53,373 nt of DNA from Minisyncoccota bacterium (lineage in GTDB: Bacteria; Patescibacteriota; Minisyncoccia; Phycocordibacterales; UBA9973), in contig JBAYHR010000005.1 of NCBI GenBank assembly GCA_041666045.1, positions 1 to 53,373 on the forward strand, given 5' to 3'. Numbering within the stretch: the first letter of the stretch is position 1; each line of letters begins with the position of its first letter. Made by a program: the position numbers and the translations under genes. Below, piece after piece: positions 1,659 through 52,574 of this stretch. A model generated the notes under the pieces. That model searched no databases, had not been told where the DNA came from, and worked only from the letters and a program-made list of their open reading frames with translations.

Positions 1659-4082
1659 CTATTTCGCTTCACCTAAATTATTTCCACACCCAAAATGCAC
1701 TGAAAGAGGAATATCGGTCTTAAAATGCAAATATGACCTTTCTAAGACGCTTTCCATGGCATTTTCTATTATTTTTTCAGCTTGTTTAATAACATCTTCT
1801 TCTATTTCATAAACCAATTCATCGTGTATTTGGAGAACCAAGTGTACTTTTGACAATAAACCTGCTTTTTCTAAATCTTCATGAGCATAACGAATAGCAA
1901 GCTTAATAAGATCTGCGGCCGTCCCCTGTACAGGAGCATTTGTAGCTGTACGCTCTGCCATATTTTTCAAAAATGGAATTCTTGATTTTATATTTGGAAA
2001 ATATCTTTTTCTACCAAATAAAGTTTCACTATATGTATTTTGGACAGCAAAATCTTTTACACTTTCTAAATAATCTCGCACTCCAGAAAATTGATTGAAA
2101 TAATTATCATAAAACTTTTGAGCTTCTTCACGAGTTCCTCCTAAGTTTTTCTTCAAACTAGAAACTCCCATTCCATAAATAATTCCAAAATTTATAACTT
2201 TAGCCCTGCGACGCATTTCATTATCAACTTTTTCTATTGGTACATTAAAAACAAAAGATGCTACACCAGCATGAATATCTTTTTTTTCACGAAAAATTTG
2301 TGTCATTTTTTTATCACCTGAAAGCATTGCTACGACTCGAAGCTCAATCTGACTATAATCAAATGCTGACAATTTGTATCCTTTCTGCGCTACAAATCCT
2401 CCTCTGATTCTTCTCCCTAATTCTGATTTAATTGGCAAGTTTTGTAAATTTGGGTCTTGAGAAGAAAATCTTCCTGTCGTCGTACCGTTTTGCAAAAACT
2501 TCGCATGTAATCTGCCATCATCACTAACCATTTTAGGAATCACATCGATGTAAGTAGAAAGAAGTTTTTGTAATTCTCTATGAGCCATTATTTCTTTTAT
2601 TATCGGATTACCTTCTTCAAGCTCTTCAAGAACTGAAATTTTTGTAGAAAAAGATCCACTCGCATTTTTTTTCTTACTTGATTTCATCCCCATCTTATCA
2701 AAAAGAACTTCTCCTAATTGCTTTGGAGAGTTTATATTAAACTCTGTTCCAGCCATTTCATATATTTTTTTAGTAATTTTATCTAATTCTTTATGATATT
2801 CTTTTGATAAATCTTCAAAATATTTTTTATCTATAAGGATTCCACGGTCTTCCATAGCTTTCACTATATGAATGATAGGTTTTTCAACTTCTTCAAAAAC
2901 AAGAGTTAGTTTTTCATCTTTCAATTTATTTAAAATATATTCTTCTGCTGTTTTAAAAGAGCTTGTTTTTGCATACAATAAAATATCATCAAGTGTTGGA
3001 CTCGTCATATCTGAATTTATAAGCCATAAAGCAATAGATGTTTGTTGTAATTGGTCTGGATCTACCAAGGAAGAATTATCTCCAGAAAGCGAGTTCAGAG
3101 AATTTTCGAGCTGGTCTGGACCCAAGCCGAGGACCCGAGAAAATTCTTCTGAACTCGCTTTCTGACTATTCTCAAAAAAACCTCTTAAACGTGAAAACAA
3201 ACTTCTAAATTCAAATTCAGAAAAAATTTGTTCAACTTTTTTCAAATCTGCATTTTCCCAAAAAGTTTTTTCTGGTAAAACAAAATTTATTGGAGCATCA
3301 GTTCTAATCGTTGCCAAGGTTTTTGAAAACAAAGCTTCTTCTTCGTTTTCTTTTACAAGATTAATTATTCTTTCTTTTATACCAGCTTTTTTAAAAGATT
3401 CAGGATCTTTTTTTATTTTTTTATAAATATCTTCAATCGTTCCAAAATTTACTATTAAATCTGTAGCTGTTTTTTCTCCTATCCCCTTAATACCAATAAT
3501 ATTATCTGATGGATCCCCTCTCAATCCTTTGTAGTCTGGTAAAAGTTTTGGCCCAAAACCAAAACGCGCCACAACCGCATCTTCGTCATATAAAATCGTA
3601 TCATTAATTCCTTTCTTTAATGTATAAACTTGAACTTTTTTATCATCCACTAATTGCATCGTATCCATATCTCCAGATGCAATAATTATTTTAATATTTT
3701 TATCTTTTTTAAATTGTTCAGCTATTGTTCCGAGCAAATCGTCAGCTTCAAAACCTGGTGAATCATAAACTGGGATATTAAATGCTTCAAAAATTTTTCT
3801 AGAATTTTTTAATTGAAATATTAAAGCATCATCCGCTTTTGCTCTACCTGCTTTGTAAGCTTCATACGCTTCATGTCGAAAAGTCTTTTGTGGAAGATCA
3901 TAACAAGCCACAATATAGTCTGGTTTTAAATCAGTAATAATCTTCATTAACATTGAAGAAAGACCATACAATGCGCCAGTTGGTTCTCCTTTTGACGATA
4001 AAAACTCAGGCAAGGCATGATAAGCGCGATGTATTATCGCATGAGAATCTAGCAACACTAGAAGTTTTGTTTTATCTTTCAT
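1659..4082 (-). CDS. polA: DNA polymerase I
   Basis: 807 aa. N-terminal 5-prime nuclease domain, and family A polymerase motifs DYSQIELRV, RRRAKVINFGIIYG and QIHDELV. The short linker leaves no full proofreading domain. Carries the GC-rich insertion at 3084-3164. Confidence 0.92.
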   Translation of the reverse strand: MKDKTKLLVLLDSHAIIHRAYHALPEFLSSKGEPTGALYGLSSMLMKIITDLKPDYIVACYDLPQKTFRHEAYEAYKAGRAKADDALIFQLKNSRKIFEAFNIPVYDSPGFEADDLLGTIAEQFKKDKNIKIIIASGDMDTMQLVDDKKVQVYTLKKGINDTILYDEDAVVARFGFGPKLLPDYKGLRGDPSDNIIGIKGIGEKTATDLIVNFGTIEDIYKKIKKDPESFKKAGIKERIINLVKENEEEALFSKTLATIRTDAPINFVLPEKTFWENADLKKVEQIFSEFEFRSLFSRLRGFFENSQKASSEEFSRVLGLGPDQLENSLNSLSGDNSSLVDPDQLQQTSIALWLINSDMTSPTLDDILLYAKTSSFKTAEEYILNKLKDEKLTLVFEEVEKPIIHIVKAMEDRGILIDKKYFEDLSKEYHKELDKITKKIYEMAGTEFNINSPKQLGEVLFDKMGMKSSKKKNASGSFSTKISVLEELEEGNPIIKEIMAHRELQKLLSTYIDVIPKMVSDDGRLHAKFLQNGTTTGRFSSQDPNLQNLPIKSELGRRIRGGFVAQKGYKLSAFDYSQIELRVVAMLSGDKKMTQIFREKKDIHAGVASFVFNVPIEKVDNEMRRRAKVINFGIIYGMGVSSLKKNLGGTREEAQKFYDNYFNQFSGVRDYLESVKDFAVQNTYSETLFGRKRYFPNIKSRIPFLKNMAERTATNAPVQGTAADLIKLAIRYAHEDLEKAGLLSKVHLVLQIHDELVYEIEEDVIKQAEKIIENAMESVLERSYLHFKTDIPLSVHFGCGNNLGEAK
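3084..3164 (-). repeat. 81-nt GC-rich palindromic insertion element, in frame in polA
   Basis: Arms cagaaagcgagttcagagaattttc / gaaaattcttctgaactcgctttctg flank the core gagctggtctggacccaagccgaggacccga. The core is homologous to the cca element at 50197-50282. Confidence 0.7.
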
Positions 4083-4603: not shown

Positions 4604-6301
4604 ATGGCAGATTTTGATGAAGAAAAACAAAATAAACAATTAGAAGACATACATAAACTAGAAGAAGAGCAATTAGTGGCAATATTAGCTCAATCAAAAT
4701 ATAACTTGCCTTATATTGATCTTTCTCGTTTAGGAATAGACAACGAAGCGCTTAGAGCAATAGATGAAAAAGACGCGCGCGAAATGAAAATTGCACCTTT
4801 TAAACTTTCTGGAAAAAATATTCTTATAGCACTTCGCTCACCTTCAGACGAACTAATCGCAAAAATAAAAGAACAAGTTGAAAGAAAAAATTTAGTTCCT
4901 ACTTTTTATATGGCATCTTTAGCAAGTTTAACTAAAGTTTGGGACAGATATAAAGAAATTTCAATGGCTGAAAGTTCAAAAACTGGGGGCTTGGATATTT
5001 CTGCAGAAATTTTACATGACACTGCAAAAAATATTGAAAAAATGCAAGATATTGAAAAATTAATAAAAGAAGCAATGGAAGGAAATCAAATACATAAAAT
5101 TTCTCGCATACTTGAAATTATACTTGCTGGCGCAATTGCAATCAAAGCTTCAGACGTACACATAGAACCAGAAAAAGAACAAAGCAGATTGAGACTTCGC
5201 TTAGATGGCGTTCTTCAAGATGTAATGTTTTTCGGATCTGATGTGTATCATTTGCTTAATTCCAGAATAAAACTTTTGTCTGGAATGAAACTAACTTCAA
5301 AAATTGCGCAAGATGGACGTTTTAGTATTATGGAAGAAAATGAGGAATTAAATATTCGTACTTCCCTTATTCCCGGAGCTTATGGTGAATCTATTGTTAT
5401 GCGTATTTTGGATCCAAAATCTATTCAAGTAAATCTTGAAGATATCGGGATAGAACCATATCTTTTTTCTGTAATACAACAAGAAATAGCTAAACCAAAC
5501 GGCTTAATATTAGTAACAGGACCAACCGGATCCGGAAAAACCACAACTTTATATGCTTTTTTAAGAAAAATATATTCTTCAGAAATAAAGATTATAACCA
5601 TTGAAGATCCAATAGAATATCACTTAGACGGAATTACTCAAACTCAAACAGATTCTAAAAAAGGTTATACGTTCTTAGAAGGTTTACGTTCAGCTCTTCG
5701 ACAAGACCCAGACGTAGTAATGGTCGGAGAAATTCGAGACAATGAAACTGCAAAAATTGCTGTCGAATCAGCTCTTACTGGACACTTAGTTTTCTCAACT
5801 CTACACACAAACAATGCGGCTGGAGTTATTCCCCGCCTTATTGATCTTGATGTAAATCCAAAAATTATGGTTTCCGCGCTTTCCCTTTCAATCGCTCAAC
5901 GTTTGGTGCGTAAGCTTTGCCAAGTTTGTAAAAAAGAAAAAGCTCTTACAGAAGAAGAAACAAAAGTTATAAAAATAATAATGGATAGTATAAAAGAAGA
6001 AGGAAAAGATTTAAAAAATTATAATATCAATCCTGACGCACCTTTCAAAATTTTCTCATCTGTTGGTTGTGAAAAATGTAATATGACAGGATTTAAAGGA
6101 CGAATAGGTATCTTTGAAGCCATTAAAACAGACGAAGCAATTGAAAAAATAATGCCTGAAAATCCTAGTGAACGTGAAATTAAAAAAGTTGCGCGAGCGC
6201 AAGGTATACTTTCAATGCGCCAAGATGGAATCGTAAAAATTTTAAATGGTATTACTTCAATAGAAGAAGTGCAAAGCGTCGTTGATTTAAACGAAGAATA
6301 A
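4604..6301 (+). CDS. GspE/PilB-family type II secretion / type IV pilus assembly ATPase
   Basis: 565 aa. Walker A GPTGSGKTTTLY, motifs DPDVVMVGEIRD and HLVFSTLHTN, and a C-terminal tetracysteine motif (CQVCKK...CEKCNMTG). Confidence 0.88.
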   Translation: MADFDEEKQNKQLEDIHKLEEEQLVAILAQSKYNLPYIDLSRLGIDNEALRAIDEKDAREMKIAPFKLSGKNILIALRSPSDELIAKIKEQVERKNLVPTFYMASLASLTKVWDRYKEISMAESSKTGGLDISAEILHDTAKNIEKMQDIEKLIKEAMEGNQIHKISRILEIILAGAIAIKASDVHIEPEKEQSRLRLRLDGVLQDVMFFGSDVYHLLNSRIKLLSGMKLTSKIAQDGRFSIMEENEELNIRTSLIPGAYGESIVMRILDPKSIQVNLEDIGIEPYLFSVIQQEIAKPNGLILVTGPTGSGKTTTLYAFLRKIYSSEIKIITIEDPIEYHLDGITQTQTDSKKGYTFLEGLRSALRQDPDVVMVGEIRDNETAKIAVESALTGHLVFSTLHTNNAAGVIPRLIDLDVNPKIMVSALSLSIAQRLVRKLCQVCKKEKALTEEETKVIKIIMDSIKEEGKDLKNYNINPDAPFKIFSSVGCEKCNMTGFKGRIGIFEAIKTDEAIEKIMPENPSEREIKKVARAQGILSMRQDGIVKILNGITSIEEVQSVVDLNEE

Positions 6302-6348
6302 AAACCCAAATTTATAATTTGAGTTTTTAAAAATTAGAAACTAAAAAA

Positions 6349-6491
6349 GCATTAATCTCCAAACAATCCTTTTAGGGCTATGCCCCGAAAGTAATAAATT
6401 CTTGAAGGATAGCACCAGCGAACTAATAAAAGTGCCAGAACGTCCTACGCAAACTTATATAACCAATGGCTGATTGCTTAGAGATTAATGC
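6349..6491. ncRNA. candidate structured RNA or palindromic element of unknown class
   Basis: A 20-nt closing inverted repeat, gcattaatctccaaacaatc / gattgcttagagattaatgc (2 mismatches), encloses about 100 nt with at least two internal hairpins (ctttTAgggcTATgcccCGaaag; ggatagcac...gtgcc...gtcc). It sits in a 319-nt intergenic gap. No SRP, 6S, RNase P or tmRNA signature was recognised. Confidence 0.3.
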
Positions 6492-6620
6492 TCTCTAAAA
6501 AATAAAACAAGGTCTTAAACCTCTTGTATTAAGTATACTATATTCCCGACGAATCAAATGGTATAATGTGGATACTGTGTTGATAATGTACTTAGCATAG
6601 TCTAGCATATAATAAAATCA

Positions 6621-7664
6621 ATGTCAAGTGATAAAACTAAAAAAATAAATAAAACACCCACAGAAAAAGAATTAAATTCTAGCGAATCTTTCTTAGATCA
6701 AGCTCTCCGCCCTACCCATTGGGATGAATATATCGGCCAAAAACACATAAAAGACAACGTTAAAATACTCTTGAAGGCTGCAGAGGAACGCGGACATATT
6801 CCTGAGCATATATTATTTTACGGACCACCAGGACTAGGAAAAACTACCCTCGCTCACCTCATCGCCCGTGAAACTGGCAAGCAAATGAAGATAACTTCTG
6901 GTCCAGCCATAGAAAAAGTTGGAGATTTGGCTTCAATTCTTACCAATCTGTCTCCTGGAGATATCATCTTTATAGACGAAATTCATAGACTCAATAAAAT
7001 GGTTGAAGAAATACTTTACCCAGCCATGGAGTCTGGTGTTTTAGATATAATTATCGGAAAAGGACCCTCTGCTCGCACAATTCAACTTGATCTTCCTCCT
7101 TTTACTTTAATAGCTGCTACCACTCGTGTCGCACTTGTCTCTTCCCCTCTACGCTCACGTTTCTCTGGTGGAGTTTTTAGATTAGAGTTTTATTCAAATG
7201 AAGAAATTGCACAAATAATAAAAAGATCTAGTAAGTTACTTGATACAGAATTAGAAGAACAAGCTTTGTGTGAAATAGCACAAAGAAGTAGATTCACACC
7301 AAGAACAGCGAATTACTTTTTAAAAAGATGTCGTGATTATGCTCAAGTAAATAAAAAACAATTAGATAAAGAAACCGTGAAGGGTGCTCTTAATATGCTT
7401 TCAATAGATGAAATTGGATTAAATTCTTCTGATAGAAAATTTTTAGAAATATTAATTGAAAAATTCAAAGGTGGACCTGTTGGATTAAAAACAATGGCTG
7501 CTGCCCTCTCTGAGGAAGAAGCAACTATTGAAGAAGTTATTGAACCATATTTAATACAGCTTGGACTTCTTGATCGCACCCCAAAAGGAAGAATTGCCAC
7601 AAAAAAAGCATATAAGCATTTGGGATTTGATTTTCCAGAAAATTTACAAAATAAACTTTTATAA
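6621..7664 (+). CDS. ruvB: Holliday junction branch migration ATPase RuvB
   Basis: 347 aa with GPPGLGKTTLA, IIFIDEIHRL and a typical C-terminal winged-helix region. Confidence 0.95.
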   Translation: MSSDKTKKINKTPTEKELNSSESFLDQALRPTHWDEYIGQKHIKDNVKILLKAAEERGHIPEHILFYGPPGLGKTTLAHLIARETGKQMKITSGPAIEKVGDLASILTNLSPGDIIFIDEIHRLNKMVEEILYPAMESGVLDIIIGKGPSARTIQLDLPPFTLIAATTRVALVSSPLRSRFSGGVFRLEFYSNEEIAQIIKRSSKLLDTELEEQALCEIAQRSRFTPRTANYFLKRCRDYAQVNKKQLDKETVKGALNMLSIDEIGLNSSDRKFLEILIEKFKGGPVGLKTMAAALSEEEATIEEVIEPYLIQLGLLDRTPKGRIATKKAYKHLGFDFPENLQNKLL

Positions 7665-8126: not shown

Positions 8127-8666
8127 ATGTCAGGACATAATAAATGGGCGCAAATAAAACACAAAAAAGCGATTACTGATTCAAAGAAAAGTAAAATCTT
8201 TTCTAAACTTGTACGTTTTATATCAGTTGAAGCAAAATTAGCAAAAGGCGATCTTAATGCACCAGGACTTCGCGCTTCAATAGAAAAAGCAAAAAAAGTA
8301 AATATGCCTAAAGATATTATTGAAAAAGCTGTCAAAAAAGCTTCTGAGCCTTCAGCTCAAATGGATTCAATCACTTATGAAGCATACGGTCCAGGAGGAG
8401 TGGCTATAATAATAGAAACACTTACTGATAGTAGAAATAGAACAGCGCAAGATATAAAACATATTCTTTCTAAAAATGGATTTGCTCTTTCTAGTATAGG
8501 TGGAGCCGTTTGGGCTTTTTCTAGAGAACAAACGCCTGAAGGTATCGTTTATAATCCAACTACCACTGTCCCCCTTTCTGACGAAGATTTAGAATTATTA
8601 GATAAATTAGTTGATGACTTAGAAGAAAATGATAATATCCAAGATATATATACTAATGCAGAATAA
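8127..8666 (+). CDS. yebC: YebC/PmpR family DNA-binding regulator (short form)
   Basis: N-terminus MSGHNKWAQIKHKKA is the family signature. At 179 aa it is shorter than the usual protein of about 240 aa. Confidence 0.85.
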   Translation: MSGHNKWAQIKHKKAITDSKKSKIFSKLVRFISVEAKLAKGDLNAPGLRASIEKAKKVNMPKDIIEKAVKKASEPSAQMDSITYEAYGPGGVAIIIETLTDSRNRTAQDIKHILSKNGFALSSIGGAVWAFSREQTPEGIVYNPTTTVPLSDEDLELLDKLVDDLEENDNIQDIYTNAE

Positions 8667-8691: not shown

Positions 8692-8712
8692 TACCAAGGG
8701 TTTCCCTTGGTA
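8692..8712. repeat. REP-like palindrome copy 1 (TACCAAGGG-TTT-CCCTTGGTA)
   Basis: Perfect 9-bp stem, followed by TTTT. Lies between the convergent yebC and ORF 8731-9330, so it may double as a terminator. Confidence 0.75.
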
Positions 8713-8730
8713 TTTTAAAAATCAATAGAA

Positions 8731-9330
8731 TTATTTAGTAAAGCGAAAACTATTATAAAATGCTTCAAAATCTGAAGTCTCCTGAGCGTCATTGCTAATA
8801 ATATAAAGTGCACCATTTCGCTTTATATAAACCATTTTAGATGCCCAATTATAAGGTTCTTTGTTGGGAGTAAACGTTACAAGTAATGCCGACATGCCAT
8901 TTATGTTTATATCTTCCTTTATCTCTTTACCATCAATCTCACTTGCTGTAGTTTTCAAGATTTGTGGAAGTTCTGCTTCTTTGTAACCCACACTAACCTC
9001 CCACATGTATCCTCCTTTTTTGGCATAGTATCCACTTTCATTTTTATCTAAAAGGATACCAAAAATAGCACAATTATTTTCAGAAACCCAACCCTTATTG
9101 CTTGGATATTTTATACTATAACCATTCATTGTGTTTGTACAAGTTGCCCAATCTGCTGTTTTGTCTAGAGTTTGCGTTGTGGTTGGAATAGACGTTTGTG
9201 GTAAATTGTTTACCAAAGTATTTTTTTCTTTCTGTTTTGAATTATTTAAGAAAAAATAACCTAACCCTACAACTAATAAAATTATTATAATAACCAACAA
9301 AATCGTATTTAATTTTGATTTGTTTTCCAT
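8731..9330 (-). CDS. hypothetical membrane-anchored / secreted protein
   Basis: 199 aa with an N-terminal TM anchor (LNTILLVIIIILLVVGLGYFF). No family recognised. Bracketed by REP copies 1 and 2. Confidence 0.5.
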   Translation of the reverse strand: MENKSKLNTILLVIIIILLVVGLGYFFLNNSKQKEKNTLVNNLPQTSIPTTTQTLDKTADWATCTNTMNGYSIKYPSNKGWVSENNCAIFGILLDKNESGYYAKKGGYMWEVSVGYKEAELPQILKTTASEIDGKEIKEDININGMSALLVTFTPNKEPYNWASKMVYIKRNGALYIISNDAQETSDFEAFYNSFRFTK

Positions 9331-9379
9331 ATTTTAATTATATCATGAATTCAGATAATATGGATTGCTACCAAGTTGC

Positions 9380-9400
9380 TACCAAGGGGAACCCTTGGTA
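9380..9400. repeat. REP-like palindrome copy 2 (TACCAAGGG-GAA-CCCTTGGTA)
   Basis: Perfect 9-bp stem. Its loop GAA is the reverse complement of the copy 3 loop TTC, so it is inverted relative to copy 3. A partial extra half-site, gctaccaagtt, lies at 9367-9377. Confidence 0.75.
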
Positions 9401-9410
9401 TAATGTATAA

Positions 9411-10067
9411 ATGGAAAGAAAAGAAAACTTTATACAAGGAGAATTGTATCATATTTATAATCGTGGAGTGGAAAAACGAATAATATTTCAAGGTGTTTCA
9501 GATTATAAAAGATTTTTAGCACTTTTATATATAGCCAATAGTGAAAATACTGTACAACTTCGTAATGATTTTTTAAAAACAAATTCACTTGATGAAATTT
9601 TTGAAAAAGATCGTGGCAAACAACTTGTAGCTATAGGCGCTTATTGTTTAATGCCAAATCATTTTCATCTACTTCTTACTCCCCTAATAGACGGGGGAAT
9701 ATCAAAATTTATGCTCAAACTTCAAACTGGCTATTCAATGTATTTTAATAAAAAAAATGACAGAGTTGGTGCTTTATTTCAAGGAATATTTAAATCACAA
9801 CATATATCTGATGATATATATTTAAAATATATTTATGCTTACATCCATCTTAATCCAGCAAAATTAAAAAATTCTAATTGGAAAACACAATCAAAAAGTT
9901 TTTTAAATCAATTAAAAAACTTTATCGCTGAATATTCTTATTCCAGCCTAAAAGAATATATTTTGAACAAATTTAAAATAATAAATCCTAAACCCTTTCC
10001 TGTTGATAAAAAAGATATCTCAAATTACAATTCCATTGTAGATGATTTTAGTGAGGGTATTTACTAA
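9411..10067 (+). CDS. IS200/IS605-like Y1 (HUH) transposase, REP-associated tyrosine transposase (RAYT)-like
   Basis: 218 aa. HUH motif in CLMPNHFHLLL and the catalytic Tyr region YIYAYIHLNPA. Confidence 0.75.
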   Translation: MERKENFIQGELYHIYNRGVEKRIIFQGVSDYKRFLALLYIANSENTVQLRNDFLKTNSLDEIFEKDRGKQLVAIGAYCLMPNHFHLLLTPLIDGGISKFMLKLQTGYSMYFNKKNDRVGALFQGIFKSQHISDDIYLKYIYAYIHLNPAKLKNSNWKTQSKSFLNQLKNFIAEYSYSSLKEYILNKFKIINPKPFPVDKKDISNYNSIVDDFSEGIY

Positions 10068-10096
10068 GATACCAAGGGTTCCCCTTGGTATCTTAG
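10064..10096. repeat. REP-like palindrome copy 3 (ctaagaTACCAAGGG-TTC-CCCTTGGTAtcttag)
   Basis: 15-bp perfect stem, overlapping the stop codon of the transposase gene. Confidence 0.75.
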
Positions 10097-17932: not shown

Positions 17933-18295
17933 ATGCTTCCTAAAAAAAATAGAGCCAACAAAAAGGCAATAGATCAAATCTTTCAAAAAGGTAGGTTTTT
18001 TAGTTCTAGTAATTTAACTTTTAAATTTATTTTAAATAAAAACACAAATCAACCAATGATTTCTTTCATTGTTCCTAAAACTGTTGTAAAAAAGGCAATT
18101 GTACGTAATTTATTAAGAAGACGCGGTTATGCTGTTTTAGAAAAGTATATAAAAGATTTCCCTGTTAGTATGGTAGGGGCTTTTATTTTTGGTAAAAAAA
18201 GTCTTGAAGTTTTTGGAAAGAGAAAAAATAAAAATTATAATCCAATTTTAAATCTTAAAAATGAAATTAAAATCATTATTAATAAAATTCATTAA
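17933..18295 (+). CDS. rnpA: RNase P protein component
   Basis: 120 aa, basic, starts MLPKKNRANKK..., in the conserved rpmH-rnpA-yidD-yidC order. Confidence 0.8.
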   Translation: MLPKKNRANKKAIDQIFQKGRFFSSSNLTFKFILNKNTNQPMISFIVPKTVVKKAIVRNLLRRRGYAVLEKYIKDFPVSMVGAFIFGKKSLEVFGKRKNKNYNPILNLKNEIKIIINKIH

Positions 18296-18551
18296 TCCCG
18301 TTAGAAGCAGGTCGCCCCAAGGTGACCGTAGCACTCACTTTTTAGTGAGGGCGGCTTCTAACGGGATTAATTTCTACCAACGTTTTTTGAGTCCACTAAA
18401 GAAACCGAGTTGTGTTTTTTATCCTTCTTGTTCAGAGTATTCAAAACAAGCAATAAATAAATATGGTGTTTTAAAAGGTTTTAAACTTTCTTTTCTTCGT
18501 ATTATTCGTTGCCATCCTTGGCAAAAAAATCATATTGACCCCGTTAAATAA
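18261..18551 (+). CDS. yidD: membrane protein insertion efficiency factor YidD, with a 27-codon palindromic insertion near the N-terminus
   Basis: Core FYQRFLSP...CVFYPSCSEYSKQAI...RIIRCHPW is the YidD signature. Removing 18291-18371 gives a normal N-terminus of the form MKLKSLLIKFIN-FYQRF. Confidence 0.75.
   Translation: MKLKSLLIKFINPVRSRSPQGDRSTHFLVRAASNGINFYQRFLSPLKKPSCVFYPSCSEYSKQAINKYGVLKGFKLSFLRIIRCHPWQKNHIDPVK
18291..18371. repeat. 81-nt GC-rich palindromic insertion element, in frame in yidD and overlapping the rnpA stop
   Basis: Perfect 18-nt arms attaatcccgttagaagc / gcttctaacgggattaat. The core has two sub-hairpins (ggtcgcc..ggtgacc and ctcac..gtgag). The arms resemble those of murI insertion 1. 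Confidence 0.7.
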
Positions 18552-26613: not shown

Positions 26614-27366
26614 CTACTCAGGCATTTCACGATATGGGTCTACTTTAACTGAAAAAGATGGTGAAGTGGAAGCTGTGGCGCCGGATGTTGGTTTTATTGT
26701 CGCTCCTAATGGAACTTTTACGCCAATATCTTTTGGACCTTCTGGTGTTTTGGAAGTTTTAGACATATTGTTTAGAGAATATTCTGTTTTTGTATTTGGT
26801 ATTTGGAAAGAACCGGAAAGTTTTTGCGCTGAGATTGATTGCATTATTTTTTTATTTTGCATTTCTTTTGCGATAAGTTCAGGATCTTCAATTTTTTTAA
26901 TCATTTCATCTCTTGAATCACCACTCCTCCCGTCCCCTCCTCCATAAGGCGGGGAAGCTTGCCCCCCCTCCTTTTCAAGGAGGGGGTTGGGGGTGGTAAT
27001 TTCTATCCCTGCGTTATTTAATATTTCATCGTCTTTTTTTTCTTCTTGTTTCCCATACAAAGACATTAATTTTTCTCTTATCTCTTTTAAGATTTTTTCA
27101 TTTACTTCATTTACTATTTTTTTGTTTTTATCATCTGGTAACTGCAGACTTCCTTTTACAGATGCTTCAAATTTGTCTGGATGAACAAAGCCAAACATAA
27201 CCATATGCGTTTCAAGAGATAATTGTCCCATTTGTTCCACAGTAAGATTATTTTCCTTGCCTATTTCTGTGATTTTTTCATCAACATTTACAGCCATAAT
27301 CGCCCATCTTAAATCTTCTGGTAAACTCTCAAACTTTTTTTGTATTTCTTCTAATGTTATTTCCAT
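26614..27366 (-). CDS. hypothetical protein carrying a GC-rich repeat insertion
   Basis: 250 aa. Helical N-domain and a low-complexity C-terminal half. The segment TTPNPLLEKEGGQASPPYGGGDGRSGDS is encoded by the repeat at 26921-26997. Confidence 0.5.
   Translation of the reverse strand: MEITLEEIQKKFESLPEDLRWAIMAVNVDEKITEIGKENNLTVEQMGQLSLETHMVMFGFVHPDKFEASVKGSLQLPDDKNKKIVNEVNEKILKEIREKLMSLYGKQEEKKDDEILNNAGIEITTPNPLLEKEGGQASPPYGGGDGRSGDSRDEMIKKIEDPELIAKEMQNKKIMQSISAQKLSGSFQIPNTKTEYSLNNMSKTSKTPEGPKDIGVKVPLGATIKPTSGATASTSPSFSVKVDPYREMPE
26921..26997. repeat. GC-rich hairpin repeat (about two tandem units), in frame
   Basis: cccctcc-tccataa-ggcgggg, then aagcttg, then ccccccctcc-ttttcaa-ggaggggg-ttgggggtgg. 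Same architecture as 36630-36667. Confidence 0.65.
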
Positions 27367-36457: not shown

Positions 36458-37251
36458 TTTTTAGCAATATTTATCCAGTTTAAAAGCGATAAATCTTCTG
36501 CTCTTTTGTTTCCTAAATCTTGCGTTAGGTCTTGCCTAACGCATTTTTTTAAATTTGATGAAAGCTTTTTGCGTTTATGAGCAAAACCAGCGTGAATTAT
36601 TTCCCAGAATTTCTCTTCATTAATATATTCCCCCTCTCCTTTATAAGGAGAGGGTTGGGGTGAGGTGAAAAGTTTTCTTGAGATATTTTTTATTGCTATT
36701 ATTGCAGAATCAACTTTTGGCGCTGGTGAAAAATATCGCGCGGGTACCTTCATTATCATTTTTGGTTCTCCGTAGGCTTTTACAGAAACAGAAAGAATAC
36801 TTTCTTTTTTATCGTTTGCAATTATTCTTTTTGCAACTTCATGTTGAACCATCAACACCATAGTATTTGGTTGGTTTTTTTCTGTGAGAAATTTTTTTAA
36901 AATTGCTCCTGTTATATTATAAGGAATATTTGCTATTATTTTATAGTCTTGCTCAAAAATAATTTGCTTAATATTAAATTTTAAAATATCATCTTCTGCT
37001 AAAATTAATTTTTTATTTTCTATTTCTTTTTTAAATTTTTCTTGCAATAATTGAAAAAGATTACGATCTTTTTCAACAGCTATTACACAATTGGATTTTT
37101 CCAAGAGTTTTTCTGTAAGTACTCCTTTCCCGGGACCAATTTCTAAAATAATATCATCTGATAAAATTTCTCCAGCTTCAATTATTTTTTTAAGGGCAAT
37201 ATTAGATTTTAAAAAATTCTGCCCTAATGATTTTTTTGCTTTATGTATCAT
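36454..37251 (-). CDS. rsmA: 16S rRNA (adenine1518/1519-N6) dimethyltransferase RsmA/KsgA
   Basis: 265 aa with KSLGQNFL, EIGPGKGVLT and NIPYNIT. Carries the insertion TSPQPSPYKGEGEY. Confidence 0.9.
   Translation of the reverse strand: MIHKAKKSLGQNFLKSNIALKKIIEAGEILSDDIILEIGPGKGVLTEKLLEKSNCVIAVEKDRNLFQLLQEKFKKEIENKKLILAEDDILKFNIKQIIFEQDYKIIANIPYNITGAILKKFLTEKNQPNTMVLMVQHEVAKRIIANDKKESILSVSVKAYGEPKMIMKVPARYFSPAPKVDSAIIAIKNISRKLFTSPQPSPYKGEGEYINEEKFWEIIHAGFAHKRKKLSSNLKKCVRQDLTQDLGNKRAEDLSLLNWINIAKN
36630..36667. repeat. GC-rich hairpin repeat, in frame in rsmA
   Basis: ccccctctcc-tttataa-ggagaggg-ttggggtgaggtg. Same family as 26961-26997. Confidence 0.65.
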
Positions 37252-39266
37252 ATATAAATTGTTTTAATTTGATCTCCCTCCCCTTCTTTTTCTAAAATAT
37301 CAGCTGGAATATCCGCAATAAATTCTGATGGAGCATTTATTTGTCTTGATCCGAATATTGTACGGAAGTTTGCAAATGATAAAAATAATTTTTCTTTTGC
37401 GCGAGTAAGTGCTACATAAAAAAGTCTGCGTTCTTCTTCAGCGTCTTCTGTCTTATTGTCTTTTTGATGAGGGAAGAGTCCGTATTCTAATCCTGTTATA
37501 AAAACATATTTGAATTCTAATCCTTTTGATGCATGTACTGTCATTAGTTTAACAGCGTTTACTTTTTCCTTCTTCTCCCCACCGTCTATTAATGAATCTT
37601 GATCTGATGCAAGCGACGCATCTTCTAGAAGTTTTTCTATTCCAGTTCCGTCTTCTAGGTAGTCATATTTTAATGCTAAAGTTGCTAATTCCTTTATATT
37701 TTCAAGCCTTTCTAGGTCTTCTTCTGTCCCAGTGGAAAGCTCAGTTTCAATACCAGATTTTTTAACCGTGAATTTTATTACCTCAGAAGCTTTAGAATTT
37801 TTAATTTTTTCTTTTATTTCTTCTAATGTATTATAAAAATTATTAATTTTTAATTGCATTTTTATTGGCAAAGTTTCTCTTTCTCCGGAAAAAATTTTAG
37901 CAAGAGTTGTTTTCCCTATTCCTCTCGTTGGGAAATTTATTATTCTTTTTATGTCAGATAAACTTTCAGGATTTAATGCTGCGCGTAAATATGCGAGCGT
38001 ATCTTTTATTTCTTTTCTTTCAAAAAATTTAATACCAAGTACTTGATATGGGATATTATATCGAAGCATTGCTTCTTCTAATACCCGAGATTGGAAATTT
38101 GCGCGGTATAAAATTGCAATCTCAGATAGATCTGAGGATTTATTTTGGAGGGGTGTCTCGCAGATTGACGAGTCGAGAGGCAGCGCTGAGCGAGCACACT
38201 CAGACAGCGACCCATCCAAAATAGAATCCTCAGGTCTATCTTGAATCTCTAAAATTTTTGTTGCTACGAATTCTGCTTCATCGTTTTCATCCAATGCTTC
38301 ATATAGAGATATTTTTTCTCCTATTTCATTTTTTGTGAAAAGATTTTTGTCAGGTCGGTATTTATTTTTTTTTATTACTTCATTCGCTGCTTCGAGAATG
38401 TTTTGAGTTGAACGATAATTTTCTTCAAGAAGAATAATTTTTGCATTTGGATAATCTTTTTCAAAGTTTAATATATTTTTTAGATTTGCTCCACGCCAAG
38501 AATAAATATTTTGATCGGCATCTCCAACAACACAAATATTTTTATTGTTTTCAGAAAGTAAACGAGACATTAAATACTGCACCTCGTTTGTGTCTTGATA
38601 CTCGTCTATGTGAATGTATTTCCATTTTTCTTGATATATTTTTCTTATTTTCTCATTTTCTTTTAATAATTTTGTCGCTTTTAAAAGTAAATCATCAAAA
38701 TCTAATGAATTTTCTTTCATTTTTCTCTTTTCATAAATATTCCAAACTTGGGCAACAATTTTTCCTAAATAATCAACAGATTTTTCTGCATAATCAGATA
38801 GATGTGTGAATTTTCCTTTTTCTCGGCTGATTATATTTTTTATTTTTTTAGGCTCATATTGTTTTGGGTCTAAATTTAGCTCTTTTATAGTTTCTTTTAT
38901 TATTGAAATTGAATCTGATTCGTCTAAAATAGTAAAATATCTTGTTAATCCTAGTATTTTTGCATTTTCTTTTATTATATGGACACCAAGAGAGTGAAAT
39001 GTTGATACGAAAGGGATGGTATTTTGTCCTTTAGCGCTTTTTTCTATTTCTGAAATTATACGTTCACGCATTTCTTTTGCGGCTTTATTTGTGAAGGTTA
39101 CAGCTAAAATATTATCTGGAGAAATACCATTTTTTATTAAATTTATTATTCTGTGCGTTATTGTTTTTGTCTTTCCTGCGCCAGCTCCAGCAACAATAAG
39201 AAGCGGGCCTTCTATATGGCTGGCAGCTTCTTTTTGTGCACTATTTAATCCTTTTAAATGCTCCAT
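37248..39266 (-). CDS. ATP-dependent DNA helicase UvrD/PcrA
   Basis: 672 aa with AGAGAGKTKTITHRI, IHIDEYQDTN and VHASKGLEF. Carries an insertion of about 39 aa. Confidence 0.9.
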   Translation of the reverse strand: MEHLKGLNSAQKEAASHIEGPLLIVAGAGAGKTKTITHRIINLIKNGISPDNILAVTFTNKAAKEMRERIISEIEKSAKGQNTIPFVSTFHSLGVHIIKENAKILGLTRYFTILDESDSISIIKETIKELNLDPKQYEPKKIKNIISREKGKFTHLSDYAEKSVDYLGKIVAQVWNIYEKRKMKENSLDFDDLLLKATKLLKENEKIRKIYQEKWKYIHIDEYQDTNEVQYLMSRLLSENNKNICVVGDADQNIYSWRGANLKNILNFEKDYPNAKIILLEENYRSTQNILEAANEVIKKNKYRPDKNLFTKNEIGEKISLYEALDENDEAEFVATKILEIQDRPEDSILDGSLSECARSALPLDSSICETPLQNKSSDLSEIAILYRANFQSRVLEEAMLRYNIPYQVLGIKFFERKEIKDTLAYLRAALNPESLSDIKRIINFPTRGIGKTTLAKIFSGERETLPIKMQLKINNFYNTLEEIKEKIKNSKASEVIKFTVKKSGIETELSTGTEEDLERLENIKELATLALKYDYLEDGTGIEKLLEDASLASDQDSLIDGGEKKEKVNAVKLMTVHASKGLEFKYVFITGLEYGLFPHQKDNKTEDAEEERRLFYVALTRAKEKLFLSFANFRTIFGSRQINAPSEFIADIPADILEKEGEGDQIKTIYI
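38124..38241. repeat. about 118-nt GC-rich palindromic insertion element, in frame in uvrD
   Basis: Arms of about 32 nt, agatagatctgaggatttattttggaggggt / acccatccaaaatagaatcctcaggtctatct (2 mismatches, 1 indel). The GC-rich core has sub-hairpins (ctgag..ctcag). Confidence 0.65.
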
Positions 39267-48368: not shown

Positions 48369-48812
48369 TCATAAAATAATATCATTCACCACTTTTATTT
48401 TTGCTTTTTTGTTTTTTAAATCTAAAAAGACAACCAAAAGGTCAACTTGCCATTCTTTTTCATCTGGCACTTTATTGGACAAAAGATAAGTTTGTATAGT
48501 TCGCGCCATTCGTTTTAATTTCCAAGGGTGCATATTATCTTCAGGCTTATATTCATCCAATGTTTCCGTCCCCTTTTGATTATTTTGGAGAACGGACAGG
48601 TCTTGTGAAACATAGTTTAAGTTTCTAGAAACAGATTTAACTTCAATAAAATAAAGTTTCTTTTCTTTTTCCGCAACAATATCAATTTCCCCCCATTTTT
48701 TTGTATAATTATTATCTAATATAGAAAAATTATGTTTCACAAGAAACCTTTCAGCTATATTTTCTCCTATTTTTCCTATTTTTTGTGTTTCTGAAGTAAA
48801 AACTTTAGGCAT
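48369..48812 (-). CDS. yraN: YraN family (UPF0102) endonuclease-like protein
   Basis: GEIDIVAEKEKKLYFIEVKS is the family core. Start placed at MPKVF (48812). The longer ORF to 48854 would translate the palindromic operator-like region. Confidence 0.7.
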   Translation of the reverse strand: MPKVFTSETQKIGKIGENIAERFLVKHNFSILDNNYTKKWGEIDIVAEKEKKLYFIEVKSVSRNLNYVSQDLSVLQNNQKGTETLDEYKPEDNMHPWKLKRMARTIQTYLLSNKVPDEKEWQVDLLVVFLDLKNKKAKIKVVNDIIL

Positions 48813-48822
48813 TCTTTTGTGT

Positions 48823-48852
48823 GTTTCATGAGAAACGTGTTTCACGTGAAAC
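48823..48852. promoter_or_regulatory. tandem palindromic sites GTTTC-N4-GAAAC x2 (operator-like)
   Basis: gtttcatgagaaac (48823-48836) and gtttcacgtgaaac (48839-48852, a perfect 14-bp palindrome), 11-40 nt upstream of the preferred yraN start. Confidence 0.35.
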
Positions 48853-49044
48853 AAATTACTTAATTTTTATGTCTTTTATTAAAATATCCTTATTTTTCAA
48901 CATATTTTTAATAAAATCGTACATAAAAGACAGTCTCAAATTATGTCCTTTATAAACAATACCCACATAGTTATCCACAGTTTTTCATAAAATCCTTATA
49001 TTTCAAGGGGAAAATAAATATGAATAAAGGACAGGTCGTTTTTG

Positions 49045-49234: not shown

Positions 49235-49305
49235 GCGGTCATGGTTTAGTGGTAGAACACGTCCTTGCCAAGGATGAGACGGGAGTTCGATTCTCCCTGG
49301 CCGCA
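49235..49305 (+). tRNA. tRNA-Gly (anticodon GCC)
   Basis: Folded by hand. Acceptor GCGGTCA/TGGCCGC, anticodon loop TTGCCAA, T-arm GGGAG-TTCGATT-CTCCC. 71 nt, with no encoded CCA. Confidence 0.9.
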
Positions 49306-49314
49306 CAAAATTTA

Positions 49315-50877
49315 GTGAATACACTAGAAAAAAATTTAATAAACAAAATTCCTCAAGAAGTTTCACATGTAACTGAAACCTTAGAAAAGGCTGGTTTTGA
49401 GGTGTATTTAGTTGGGGGATGTGTCCGTGATCTTTTAATGGATAAAGAGCCAAAAGACTGGGATATAACTACAAACGCAAAACCAGATCAGATTATAGGA
49501 CTTTTTGAAAAGACAGTTTATGAGAATATTTTTGGAACAGTAGCTATTATAAATAAAGATGTTTCACAAGAAACATTACGCCAAATAGAGGTTACTCCAT
49601 ATAGAATTGAGACAAAATATAGTGATTTTAGACACCCTGATGAAGTTAAATTTAGTGATAAGCTAGAAGATGACCTTAAGAGACGTGATTTTACAGTGAA
49701 TGCTGTGGCTTTAAGCTCTAAAGGACATCTAGTTGATTTATTTAATGGCATAAAGGACATTGAAAGTAAAACATTAAACACAGTGGGAGATCCAAATGAT
49801 CGTTTTAACGAAGATGCTTTACGAATGCTTCGGGCAGTACGCTTCGCTGTACAATTAGATTTTTCTGTGTCGTATGAAGTTTCTGAAAATATTATAAAAA
49901 ACTCAAGTTTAATTAAAAAAATTTCAGAAGAAAGAATTCGTGATGAATTTATAAAAATAATTATGTCACAAAATCCATCAATAGGAATTGTGATGTTGAA
50001 TAAATTTAATTTATTAAAAAATATAATTCCAGAATTAGAAGAAGGAATAAATTGCGAACAATCTGGTGAACATATTTATGATGTTTGGAATCATTTACTT
50101 CATGCATTACAACATTCAGCAGACAAAAATTGGCCTTTAGAAATAAGACTTTCTTCGCTTTTTCATGATATTGGTAAACCTAAGTCTAGAAGAATAGCAA
50201 TACGGGATAATAATTTTTCAGGTCCTCGGTTCTCCGGGTCCCTATCCCGGCCAGACCATGAAAAATCATCATCCCGTATTGCCAAAAAGTTGTATACTTT
50301 TTATGGTCATGAAGTTGTGAGTGCAAGAATGACAAAAAAGATTTTAGAGAGATTAAAATTTCCTAAAAAAGAAATTGAGCTTGTGGATAAACTTGTTCGC
50401 AATCATATGTTTTTTTCTGACACAGAACAAATTACGCTTTCTGCGGTGCGAAGAATTATTACAAAAGTCGGGAAAGAAAATATTTGGTCTCTTATGAATG
50501 TCCGTGAATGTGATAGAGTAGGAATGAAAAAGAAAGAAGCACCATATCGTTTGAGGAAATATTTTGCAATGATAGAGGAAGCATTACACGATCCTATCTC
50601 TGTTGGACAGCTTAAAATTGATGGAGAATTTATGATAAAGGACATCGGAATTAAGCCGGGACCTAGAATGGGCTGGATTTTGCATGCTCTTTTAGAAGAA
50701 ATTCTTGAAGATCCTTTAAAAAATACCATTGAGTATTTAAAGGACAAGGTTATTAACCTTGATAAACTTACTGATGCTAAATTAAAGATATTGGGAGAAA
50801 AGGGAAAAGAAAAAAAAGAAGACCTAGAAGAGGAAGAAGTTTTAAAACTTCATCAAAGACATGGTGTTCATAAATAA
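49315..50877 (+). CDS. cca: CCA-adding enzyme / tRNA nucleotidyltransferase with HD domain
   Basis: YLVGGCVRDLLM, DWDITT, RRDFTVNA and HD motif LFHDIGKP. The track ORF start (49249) overlaps tRNA-Gly, so the start is placed at the first in-frame GTG after the tRNA (49315). Carries an insertion of about 28 aa inside the HD domain. Confidence 0.85.
   Translation: MNTLEKNLINKIPQEVSHVTETLEKAGFEVYLVGGCVRDLLMDKEPKDWDITTNAKPDQIIGLFEKTVYENIFGTVAIINKDVSQETLRQIEVTPYRIETKYSDFRHPDEVKFSDKLEDDLKRRDFTVNAVALSSKGHLVDLFNGIKDIESKTLNTVGDPNDRFNEDALRMLRAVRFAVQLDFSVSYEVSENIIKNSSLIKKISEERIRDEFIKIIMSQNPSIGIVMLNKFNLLKNIIPELEEGINCEQSGEHIYDVWNHLLHALQHSADKNWPLEIRLSSLFHDIGKPKSRRIAIRDNNFSGPRFSGSLSRPDHEKSSSRIAKKLYTFYGHEVVSARMTKKILERLKFPKKEIELVDKLVRNHMFFSDTEQITLSAVRRIITKVGKENIWSLMNVRECDRVGMKKKEAPYRLRKYFAMIEEALHDPISVGQLKIDGEFMIKDIGIKPGPRMGWILHALLEEILEDPLKNTIEYLKDKVINLDKLTDAKLKILGEKGKEKKEDLEEEEVLKLHQRHGVHK
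50197..50282 (+). repeat. about 86-nt GC-rich palindromic insertion element, in frame in cca
   Basis: Perfect outer arms gcaatacgggat / atcccgtattgc and inner arms tttttcaggtc / gaccatgaaaaa. The core is ctcggttctccgggtccctatcccggcca. Confidence 0.7.
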
Positions 50878-51698: not shown

Positions 51699-52574
51699 AT
51701 GCGCATAGGAATTTTTGATTCAGGATTAGGGGGCTTAATTATTGCCAAAGCAATAAGGAAATTAATGCCAGAATATTACTATGTTTATCTTGGAGACACT
51801 AAAAGAGTGCCTTATGGGAATAGATCTCATGAGACAGTTTTTGAATTTACAAAACAAGCTGTTGATTATTTATTTAGAAAAGAAAATTGTGAAATTGTAA
51901 TTTTAGCTTGCAACACTGCTTCAGCGAGAGCGCTTAGAAGAATACAGCAAGAATATTTAGCAAAGAATTTTCCAGACAGAAAAGTGCTTGGAGTTTTGAT
52001 TCCAACAGCAGAAGAATGCGCTAAGTATAAAAGTGTAGGAATAATAGCCACAAATGGAACCGTTTTATCCAATACTTTTCTTGATGAAATAAAAAAGCTT
52101 TCTCAAAAAACAAAAGTTTTTCAAAATCCTGCGCCAATGCTTGTGTCTTTAGCAGAAGAAGGGGAGAAAGTTTTAGTAAAACCATTTATTGAAAAATATT
52201 TGAAACCATTTAAAGGAAAAAAAATACAAGCTTTAGCACTTGGTTGTACACATTATCCTTTTTATAAAAATGAAATTAGAAAGATTTTAGGAAAGAATCC
52301 CATTAGAGCCCGCGAGGGATCTAAAAGACCCTCTGCCTCTAACGGGGCAAGTATAAAGGTCATCTCTCAAGATGAAATAATTCCAAAGAAATTAAAAGAG
52401 TATTTTAAAAGACATCTAGAGGTAGAAAAATTATTGTCAAAAAAGCAAACCCCGAACCAGAGCAAAGCTCGGTACGGGGCAAGGATCCTCGTAACGGACA
52501 TCACAAAAAACGTAGAAAAATTAACCCAAAAATGGTTTGGAAAAGACGTTAAACCAGAATTAATAAGATTATAG
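51699..52574 (+). CDS. murI: glutamate racemase
   Basis: 291 aa with IGIFDSGLGGL, ILACNTAS and LGCTHYPF. Contains two GC-rich insertions. Confidence 0.9.
   Translation: MRIGIFDSGLGGLIIAKAIRKLMPEYYYVYLGDTKRVPYGNRSHETVFEFTKQAVDYLFRKENCEIVILACNTASARALRRIQQEYLAKNFPDRKVLGVLIPTAEECAKYKSVGIIATNGTVLSNTFLDEIKKLSQKTKVFQNPAPMLVSLAEEGEKVLVKPFIEKYLKPFKGKKIQALALGCTHYPFYKNEIRKILGKNPIRAREGSKRPSASNGASIKVISQDEIIPKKLKEYFKRHLEVEKLLSKKQTPNQSKARYGARILVTDITKNVEKLTQKWFGKDVKPELIRL
52298..52347. repeat. GC-rich hairpin insertion 1 in murI
   Basis: tcccattagagcc ... gcctctaacgggg with the inner hairpin gaggg-atctaaaaga-ccctc. The arms resemble the yidD element. Confidence 0.6.
52450..52479. repeat. GC-rich hairpin insertion 2 in murI
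   Basis: ccccgaaccagagc-aaa-gctcggtacgggg (imperfect), followed by caaggatcctcgtaacggac. Confidence 0.45.

Follow-up and report, generated by a model that had tools for sequence, protein, structure and literature searches.

A hairpin inserted in frame in the cca gene of a Minisyncoccota bacterium is probably a copy of a selfish repeat akin to the Rickettsia palindromic elements

Introduction

How does a palindrome come to lie inside the gene of a tRNA nucleotidyltransferase, and is the stretch that it adds translated, removed or put to use by the cell? The question is raised by an 86-nt hairpin in the cca gene of a Minisyncoccota bacterium (assembly GCA_041666045.1, contig JBAYHR010000005.1), of which positions 1-53,373 of the forward strand were analysed; this whole AT-rich stretch of 53,373 nt (30% GC) is called the window below, and its host was placed in the Patescibacteria group, among the Paceibacteria/Nomurabacteria. 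We argue here that the hairpin is probably an inherited and translated copy of a selfish repeat, named type A, which resembles the palindromic elements of Rickettsia and of which only the central part, or core, would be copied from place to place.

Results

A stable hairpin in frame in cca

The coordinates of the host gene, of the hairpin and its parts and of the comparable elements of the window are collected in Table 1. The 12-nt outer arms of the cca hairpin, gcaatacgggat (50197-50208) and atcccgtattgc (50271-50282), are perfectly complementary, the full 24-nt arms (50197-50220 versus 50259-50282) are complementary at 92% of their positions, and the inner arms, tttttcaggtc and gacc-a-tgaaaaa, pair with a one-base bulge. 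The core begins with a T-run (TTTTT, 50214-50218) and ends with an A-run (AAAAA, 50261-50265), between which the two halves of what we call the clamp, GGTCCTCGG (50221-50229) and CCAGACC (50251-50257), enclose the apical stem-loop CCGGG-TCCCTAT-CCCGG (50234-50250). As RNA, positions 50197-50282 have a minimum free energy (MFE) of -42.5 kcal/mol, compared with -18.4 +/- 2.9 kcal/mol for 200 dinucleotide shuffles, none of which was as stable (z = -8.3); the background over all 100-nt windows of the 53-kb stretch averages -12.8 +/- 5.4 kcal/mol. Across the insert, the open reading frame (ORF) reads HDIGKPKSRR-IAIRDNNFSGPRFSGSLSRPDHEKSSSRIA-KKLYTFYGHE, the extra peptide amounting to 30 residues (294-323) and including the insert-specific peptides DNNFSGPR and FSGSLSRPDHEK. 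An earlier note on this DNA had described perfect outer arms and an in-frame hairpin of about 86 nt, a description that sequence, fold energy and ORF all support; it had also placed the additional peptide correctly, between HDIGKPKSRR and KKLYTFYGHE, its estimate of roughly 28 residues being slightly too low.

The host protein has the Pfam domains PolyA_pol, PolyA_pol_RNAbd, HD and, at the C-terminus, tRNA_NucTran2_2, is assigned to the class II nucleotidyltransferases and counts CCA-adding enzymes and 3wfo among its PDB relatives. Its scores for the NCBIfam CCA families fall just under the equivalog cut-offs, and its activity could be CCA-, CC- or A-adding. A mechanically listed ORF of 542 aa (49249-50877) begins inside tRNA-Gly(GCC) (49235-49306); the GTG at 49315 is likely to be the true start, as in the database protein P0002 (520 aa).

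All of the 120 best protein matches come from Patescibacteria, Paceibacterota or Nomurabacteria and are 70-84% identical to the cca protein. The flanks HDIGKPxxRR and KKxYTFYGHE are kept in every one of them, and the stretch in between varies from about 9 to 74 residues (0 to ~65 extra) and comprises many unrelated types of peptide. More distant orthologs share the native loop RRFDATKAGGKGKYTFYGHE, and in the solved relative 3wfo/3wfp nine residues join HDIGKP to VTFYEHD. The AlphaFold2 model of the cca protein of the window (mean predicted local distance difference test score, pLDDT, 80) falls below a pLDDT of 50 at residues 295-325, which are flanked by strands 290-293 and 326-329, and the insert-free ortholog P0101 has the same predicted fold with just residues 301-306 at low confidence. 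According to these models, the insert is therefore predicted to form a disordered surface loop outside the catalytic core, at the tip of a beta-hairpin located just behind the HD motif.

Turnover at the cca site

Eighty genomic loci with an orthologous cca site were fetched and their DNA was read at the position of the insert. A strong hairpin (-23 to -75 kcal/mol) is present at 51 of these sites and the remaining 29 are short. The inserts belong to at least 10 unrelated families. The family with the clamp of the window copy is read in frame 0 (NNLSGPRFSGSLS), in frame 1 (FAQVLGSP...AQPDHSQKH) or antisense (ERSGRGRDPENRGPDKL) in different orthologs; nested or tandem doubles occur, for example, in L005, L024 and P0105 (labels beginning with L denote fetched loci); and in L020 and L046 the site is filled by the core family of the uvrD element of the window. 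Some short alleles, LAEHTGSSKKK, LAEAGAGQKHTGSVNKKK and LAEGSAKKK among them, resemble what deletion would leave of an element. The cca site is a hotspot, which different core families have occupied and in which they have been flipped, doubled and partly deleted in different lineages. At orthologous sites the arms diverge with relatedness, being identical in L004 and L006 and similar in L003, L009 and L016; the same core at the same place with arms that have diverged stepwise among relatives points to inheritance, so the cca copy of the window appears to be old and vertically transmitted rather than recent.

These data modify the picture drawn in the earlier note, which took the hairpin for an insertion in the core of the catalytic domain at a place where family members usually have only a few residues. 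An insertion it is, when measured against the native loop, the position being not in the core but at an insert-tolerant beta-hairpin tip; and few residues are indeed the rule in 3wfo/3wfp (9) and at 29 of the 80 sites, but not at the 51 sites with hairpin inserts. The alternative that the stretch is an ancestral, conserved part of the HD domain finds no support, the allele being short in 29 of 80 orthologs and the other 51 sites being divided among 10 or more unrelated families. Of the two options offered in the note, a looped-out peptide or removal of the RNA segment, the former agrees with the low-confidence AlphaFold loop and the unchanged fold of P0101.

A repeated core between arms that belong to the site

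The gene polA (1659-4082, minus strand) contains a second type A copy, in which the apical module is short (CTTGGGT) and the outer arms are unrelated to those of the cca copy. Common to both hairpins is TTTTC..GGTCCTCGG..GGGTCC..CCAGACCA..GAAAA. Since the shared bases are translated in different frames, as FSGPRFSG in cca and FSRVLGLGPDQ in polA, the likeness lies at the level of DNA and not of protein, and it is at this level, in the clamp and the T/A-run inner arms, that the homology of the cca core to the polA element, proposed earlier, holds. BLASTN detected no second full-length copy of the cca element in the window, the relation to polA being visible at the core level only. Among polA orthologs from metagenomes, five (L185, L158, L175, L197 and L199) have type A at the site used in the window and one more has another element.

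A regular expression for the clamp was run over 1.24 Mb of related genomes, where it recovered 21 cca copies and 12 copies at other places, and then over metagenome contigs, at least 120 of which were matched, and viral contigs. Counting only hairpin copies in contigs with a GC content of up to 0.5, type A occupies no fewer than 136 separate places in AT-rich DNA that resembles Patescibacteria; it is found either way round and is read in several frames. Clamp matches in GC-rich contigs, as well as seven in viral contigs (GC 0.50-0.71), are devoid of arms and were rejected as chance matches.

When 17 copies are aligned without gaps, mean pairwise identity is 84% in the core (from T-run to A-run), whereas the outer arms are no more alike (35%) than the flanking background (34%). 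Despite this divergence the arms remain complementary: 84.9% of the cells are paired, as against 67.6% after shuffling and 31-55% for partners slid out of register, and double-sided changes number 109, compared with 38.5 in the shuffles. No variation is seen in the clamp columns or at several unpaired bases, and the two sides of the apical stem covary (CCGGG/CCCGG versus CTGGG/CCCAG). Between genomes the apical module differs, but the copies of one genome have it in common. Thus, the three copies on the 3.8-kb contig L101 have an identical, genome-specific apical module and three unrelated pairs of arms, the two copies in L043 have GCAGGAGTACCTGTCG in common and unrelated arms, and the arms of the three copies in L004 are likewise unrelated. 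Since copies from one genome combine identical cores with unrelated arms, the idea of arms that move together with the element was rejected. Shared apical modules next to unrelated arms within a genome therefore suggest that the core is the unit that is copied or homogenised, the arms belonging to the site. The cca copy is a member of this family, with a clamp that encloses a variable apical stem-loop, T/A-run inner arms and complementary, site-specific outer arms.

Reading frame of the inserts

At each of the 51 occupied cca sites the ORF runs on through the insert. In the consensus core, the three forward frames and two of the three reverse frames are open, the third reverse frame having two stop codons. 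Among the matches listed, 105 of the 136 copies are genic, that is, located inside an ORF of at least 150 codons, 79 in sense and 26 in antisense orientation; none of the 26 uses the stop-containing frame, both open frames being used, and no frame-breaking genic copy was seen. The other 31 copies lie outside long ORFs, and the nine of them that were inspected as possible interrupted genes all turned out to separate one gene from another (map, polA, tpiA, ftsK, atpE and others) and to lie directly behind a natural stop codon. At the gathering threshold, Rfam recognised only tRNAs in the whole window, and scans of two elements at a permissive E-value gave just sub-threshold matches to miRNA-precursor-like hairpins and no intron or ribozyme. 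The marks of an intron, an intervening sequence or an intein are missing, in that no Rfam intron or ribozyme is recognisable and the frame is always preserved. An excised segment need not respect the frame, yet the frame is always kept, which makes removal at the RNA level unlikely; most likely, to judge from these constraints, the insert is translated with the gene.

Other in-frame hairpins of the window

Besides the two type A copies, at least 6 further hairpins, which belong to other core families, lie inside ORFs of the 53-kb window (Table 1). The density of in-frame hairpins in the window is about one per 6-7 kb. The hotspot in the uvrD-like helicase gene is occupied in 20 of 24 orthologs, by up to three tandem elements in both orientations. 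There are two hotspots in ksgA and one in polA. At the ksgA/rsmA element site, 9 of 17 orthologs are empty and the remainder have at least 5 different elements. The left arms at the ksgA hotspot (NQVIQKF, SEEIFKF and KQDIALQ) are homologous to the native coding sequence KQIIFE of the core-less allele of the window, irrespective of the resident core family, and the right arm is the reverse complement of the left. One arm that is homologous to the native flank and another that is its inverse point to an inverted duplication of the flank, and we infer that the ksgA arms arose in this manner, by fold-back or template-switch synthesis. A copy related to the yidD element is present in L022 in the opposite orientation, and an element related to the first murI hairpin, ATCCCGTTAGGGGCCGCGAGGG...CCTCTAACGGGAT, is present in L065. 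The behaviour seen at cca, with fixed hotspots, many core families, insertion either way round and site-specific arms, recurs in several genes of the window and in many related genomes.

Some repeats from the related genomes have a different appearance. The family ATTCCCCTCTTGAGGGG...CCTCAAGAGGAGAAT (cluster 8) has fixed termini and looks more like a miniature inverted-repeat transposable element (MITE). Fixed termini, ATTCCCCTCTTGAGGGGTG ... GTACTCCTCAAGAGGAGAAT, mark an in-ORF family (L017:47-129, L017:1778-1876, L042:2173-2264 and L064:4066-4165) which occupies two different gene sites, is more MITE-like than type A and possibly has AATT at both junctions.

Table 1. Host gene, parts of the cca hairpin and other in-frame hairpin elements of the window
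Feature	Position	Strand	Remarks
tRNA nucleotidyltransferase (CCA-adding type) with HD/HDIG domain, 520 aa	49315..50877	+	Pfam; database protein P0002
Whole palindromic element, outer arms and core	50197..50282	+	86 nt, inside cca, GC-enriched
Left outer arm, site-specific, codes IAIRDN	50197..50213	+	15/17 positions pair in the cca copy
Conserved type A core (T-run, clamp, apical stem-loop, clamp, A-run)	50214..50265	+	recurs elsewhere
Right outer arm, reverse complement of the left arm, codes SSSRIA	50266..50282	+	pairs with the left arm
Second type A copy, in polA, linker after the 5'-3' exonuclease domain	3083..3164	-	-45.4 kcal/mol, shared core, in frame
Same class, another core family (cluster 13), near the yidD N-terminus	18291..18371	+	-49.3 kcal/mol, 18-nt perfect arms, in frame
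GC-rich double hairpin in ORF 26614-27366 (250 aa, no Pfam match), probably same class	26919..26997	-	-45.3 kcal/mol
Same class, short element CCCCTCTCCTTTATAAGGAGAGGG, in the ksgA/rsmA hotspot	36628..36665	-	in frame
Same class, other core family (GGGTCGCTGTCT...CGTC...CTGCGAGACACCCC, cluster 0), in the uvrD/pcrA-like helicase hotspot	38122..38244	-	-62.9 kcal/mol, in frame
GC-rich hairpin in murI (CCCATTAGAG...CTCTAACGGGG), same class, another family	52298..52345	+	in frame
Second short GC-rich murI hairpin, CCCCGAACC-GAGC-AAA-GCTC-GGTACGGGG	52449..52480	+	in frame

A Y1 transposase unit and other features

The window also encodes a Y1 transposase-like protein, in a unit (8692-10090) that resembles a REPtron and consists of a Y1_Tnp ORF (9411-10067, plus strand), similar to the transposases associated with repetitive extragenic palindromic (REP) sequences (REP-associated tyrosine transposases, RAYT), and a PsbP_2-like ORF (8731-9330, minus strand). 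The Y1 protein matches Pfam Y1_Tnp and has the HUH motif LMPNHFHLL; its best NCBIfam match is 'REP-associated tyrosine transposase', with 42 bits against a cut-off of 80. Three copies of the hairpin TACCAAGGGnnnCCCTTGGTA (8692-8712, 9380-9400 and 10070-10090) bracket the two ORFs, and neither the rest of the window nor the 208 loci that were fetched showed a further copy. This hairpin was considered as a relative of the in-gene elements, or as a repeat spread in the same way, and rejected, its sequence being different and its three copies surrounding one gene. A second Y1 gene did not turn up in the related flanks (1.24 Mb), and a link between the Y1 transposase and type A is only a lead. The unit sits between yebC and ruvC, genes that are usually neighbours; the yebC/TACO1-like ORF (8127-8666, 179 aa), in which the second Pfam domain is matched in two stretches, may be truncated or interrupted.

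Several other motifs were recorded in the window. The palindrome GTTTCACGTGAAAC and its near-copies lie shortly before the UPF0102/NERD-like gene (48369-48854, minus strand) and at its start, at 48823-48852 and also at 48734-48747, 49360-49373 and 49561-49574 (7 matches, 0.1 expected); many related loci keep the motif pair upstream of the ortholog (cluster 2), and it may act as an operator or promoter. The spacer that separates tRNA-Arg from the UPF0102 gene contains the block ctgtggataactatgtgggtattgtttataaaggaca (~48940-48985, minus strand), in which a DnaA-box-like TTATCCACA adjoins a conserved GTCCTTTATAAACA motif and which recurs in L003, L040 and L065 (cluster 4). Two further stable structures, an AT-rich hairpin of 100 nt (11-110), which has a small GC tip and lies at the window start, and a 145-nt long-range stem at 6348-6492, in the spacer of ORFs 4604-6301 and 6621-7664, both fold with -36 kcal/mol and have no Rfam match at the gathering threshold.

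Discussion

We consider it likely that the cca hairpin represents a selfish repeat of the type A family which is inherited in frame and translated with its host gene. The unit copied would be the core of about 50 nt, GC-rich and composed of T-run, GGTCCTCGG, variable apical stem-loop, CCAGACC and A-run. The outer arms, of 10-20 nt, would not be carried along; they would be built from local sequence, one arm being an inverted copy of the neighbouring coding DNA, and would be held complementary while their sequence drifts. Within genes, just those copies that are in frame and free of stop codons would survive, the element being transcribed and translated together with the gene, in the case of cca as a disordered loop of 30 residues with presumably little effect on the enzyme. 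The core might be copied by transposition into hairpin loops or permissive sites, or by gene conversion between copies; the arms might grow and be corrected by fold-back or template-switch replication; and recombination between the arms could flip the orientation. The element itself would have no function for the host.

Several observations weigh against this interpretation. No transposition event was caught among the available genomes, and the sole other record of the genome (L081) is 100% identical to the window and therefore offers no comparison of filled and empty sites within the species; nor do the copies at hand define a target site or a target duplication. The hairpin that flanks the RAYT-like Y1 gene differs from type A, so that no mobilising enzyme is tied to the element. 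The bases that are invariant though unpaired, and the apical stem that covaries, are found across genomes whose enzymes are ~70-84% identical, and such conservation of the core looks like the outcome of purifying selection and could mean that it has a function, for instance as a protein-binding site or an RNA signal, and is not purely selfish. The ratio of sense to antisense copies, 79:26 among the matches listed, exceeds the 3:2 that follows from the open frames, the copies not being phylogenetically independent. That the arms are local rests mainly on one well-resolved site, ksgA, where the core-less alleles could instead be deletion products, and translation of the insert is deduced from constraints on the sequence only.

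Part of this evidence leads to the most serious competing explanation, in which the hairpins are host-functional signals in nucleic acid, with a conserved core under selection and the protein insert as a tolerated side effect. Candidate signals are, on DNA, a site for a nucleoid, replication or recombination protein and, on mRNA, a stability, processing or ribosome-pausing signal. Such a role would fit the invariant clamp and unpaired bases together with the covarying apical stem, the strong conservation of the core between randomised arms, and the sense bias; the genome-specific apical modules, present in all copies of a genome, look as if they co-evolved with one binding protein, many intergenic copies directly follow stop codons, at the place of terminators or stabilising hairpins, and the same sites are highly occupied across a wide clade. 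We nevertheless regard this explanation as unlikely. A single cca site with so many unrelated core families, empty in over a third of the orthologs (29 of 80) and holding the same core either way round, is difficult to reconcile with a signal: one made of RNA would not survive inversion, even if a role on DNA that is indifferent to orientation remains compatible. Moreover, elements that are doubled or tripled in tandem or partly deleted give an impression of turnover, not of maintenance, and no Rfam family is matched.

Removal of the segment, whether after transcription, in the manner of an intron or an intervening sequence processed by RNase, or after translation, such that the mature enzyme lacks it, appears very improbable. 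A highly stable hairpin with defined ends is a plausible substrate for an enzyme of the RNase III type, and bacteria of the candidate phyla radiation (CPR) carry intervening sequences in their rRNA genes. However, the occupied sites are all in frame and stop-free, the stop-containing frame is unused and the matches listed include no frame-breaking genic copy; 86 nt is far too small for a group I or group II intron, no Rfam match rises above noise, cleavage without ligation would destroy an essential mRNA, and intein motifs are absent from an insert of just 30 residues. The RNA-removal option of the earlier note is not borne out by these data. Scarcely credible is, finally, that the hairpin arose by local template switching in a variable loop and came to resemble the polA element by convergence, or that it is an ancestral piece of the HD domain. 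It is true that the length of the loop is hypervariable and that the outer arms look generated from local sequence, a part of this account that is kept in the interpretation of the hairpin as a type A repeat. For the core, a local origin is already refuted by a near-identical sequence of ~37-50 nt at 136 or more places, in different genes and in intergenic DNA, the chance matches in GC-rich contigs having no arms; and an ancestral piece would not be missing in 29 of 80 orthologs and in the solved relative, nor fail to be conserved as protein.

Going beyond the repeat family itself, it is possible, though we put it forward tentatively and only with its four linked properties taken jointly, that Patescibacteria harbour a previously undescribed class of mobile 'hairpin-core' elements. 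Under this proposal, a GC-rich and mostly stop-free core of ~50 nt would be copied into existing hairpin loops or permissive sites, perhaps by a single-strand-DNA enzyme such as a RAYT-like Y1 transposase; the palindrome would grow by fold-back copying of neighbouring coding DNA; template-switch correction would keep the arms paired; and hotspots in essential genes would be repeatedly re-colonised, inverted and partly deleted. If true, hairpin-core elements would be a main source of length variation and of disordered loops in the proteins of these minimal genomes. The combination of a mobile core, local covarying arms and shared hotspots provides a testable model of how palindromes are born and kept up in genes. 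On the practical side, the inserts inflate and diversify CPR proteins and can confuse alignments, domain calls and phylogenies; they are also natural markers of permissive sites in essential enzymes.

Comparison with known systems

MITEs, small non-autonomous elements with inverted repeats, resemble type A in that in-frame fusions are possible, and several bacterial MITEs, including Correia, ERIC, Nezha and QMITE1, are in frame with host ORFs (PMC10969869). Unlike type A, for which none of these was seen, MITEs have conserved terminal inverted repeats, target-site duplications and a recognisable parent insertion sequence: the termini of type A differ at every site, and no flanking direct repeat is evident by eye in the aligned copies. 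REP sequences and the REPINs formed by them share with type A the short, GC-rich, imperfect palindromes, the many copies, the vertical persistence and the genome-specific variants, and the window has, in its Y1 gene (9411-10067) flanked by TACCAAGGGnnnCCCTTGGTA, a counterpart of the single-copy HUH Y1 gene flanked by its own hairpins that characterises the REPIN-RAYT system. Yet REPs are extragenic by definition, whereas 105 of the 136 type A copies among the matches listed lie in long ORFs, and the hairpins around the Y1 gene are unrelated to type A, a comparison that covers the 53-kb window rather than the whole genome. REP elements are described as palindromes of 20-40 nt with a conserved tag, GTAG or CGTC, at one end (PMC3733652); type A has neither of the two where its core ends, and in the core family of cluster 0 CGTC is central.

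The translated genes of Nematomorpha provide a further parallel, with long, well-paired inverted repeats that were gained and lost between species in an AT-rich, compact genome and whose arms are kept complementary, template switching or conversion between arms having been proposed. There, however, both arms code for conserved parts of the protein and no mobile core is shared, whereas type A is extra loop sequence with a GC-rich core common to many sites. Fold-back or template-switch synthesis, inferred above for ksgA, has been proposed for other coding palindromes (PMC6649704).

The closest functional analogue of type A would seem to be the Rickettsia palindromic elements (RPE). The families RPE-1 to RPE-10 (Ogata et al. 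2000, 2002) are found in frame in housekeeping genes, at structurally tolerant positions; they measure ~100-150 bp, are regarded as selfish DNA and have no known transposase (PMC10969869, PMC6649704), and their palindromes are reported to decay (PMC6649704). Like the RPEs, type A and the other core families are repeated palindromic DNA, of several families, in a reduced, AT-rich bacterial genome, with many copies in unrelated housekeeping genes, in frame, where the fold tolerates a peptide. The likeness is one of description, type A being an analogue from another phylum, in which homology to RPE-1 to RPE-10 is not expected, and not a member. It is shorter (core ~50 nt, 86 nt with arms), and only its core is repeated (84% identity, against 35% in the arms), whereas in RPEs the whole palindrome is the unit; many families re-use its fixed hotspots, inserted either way round and read in different frames, and its arms stay complementary with covariation.

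We found no prior description of such elements in CPR/Patescibacteria in the literature, of which our coverage was incomplete and included few subscription papers. Type A is apparently undescribed in this group, and we see in it a counterpart of the Rickettsia case rather than a new category. Its occurrence suggests that compact, AT-rich, gene-dense genomes repeatedly channel repeats into permissive protein loops. In-frame selfish palindromes, so far treated as a nearly unique curiosity of Rickettsia, would now have a distinct counterpart in an unrelated lineage with ultra-small genomes.

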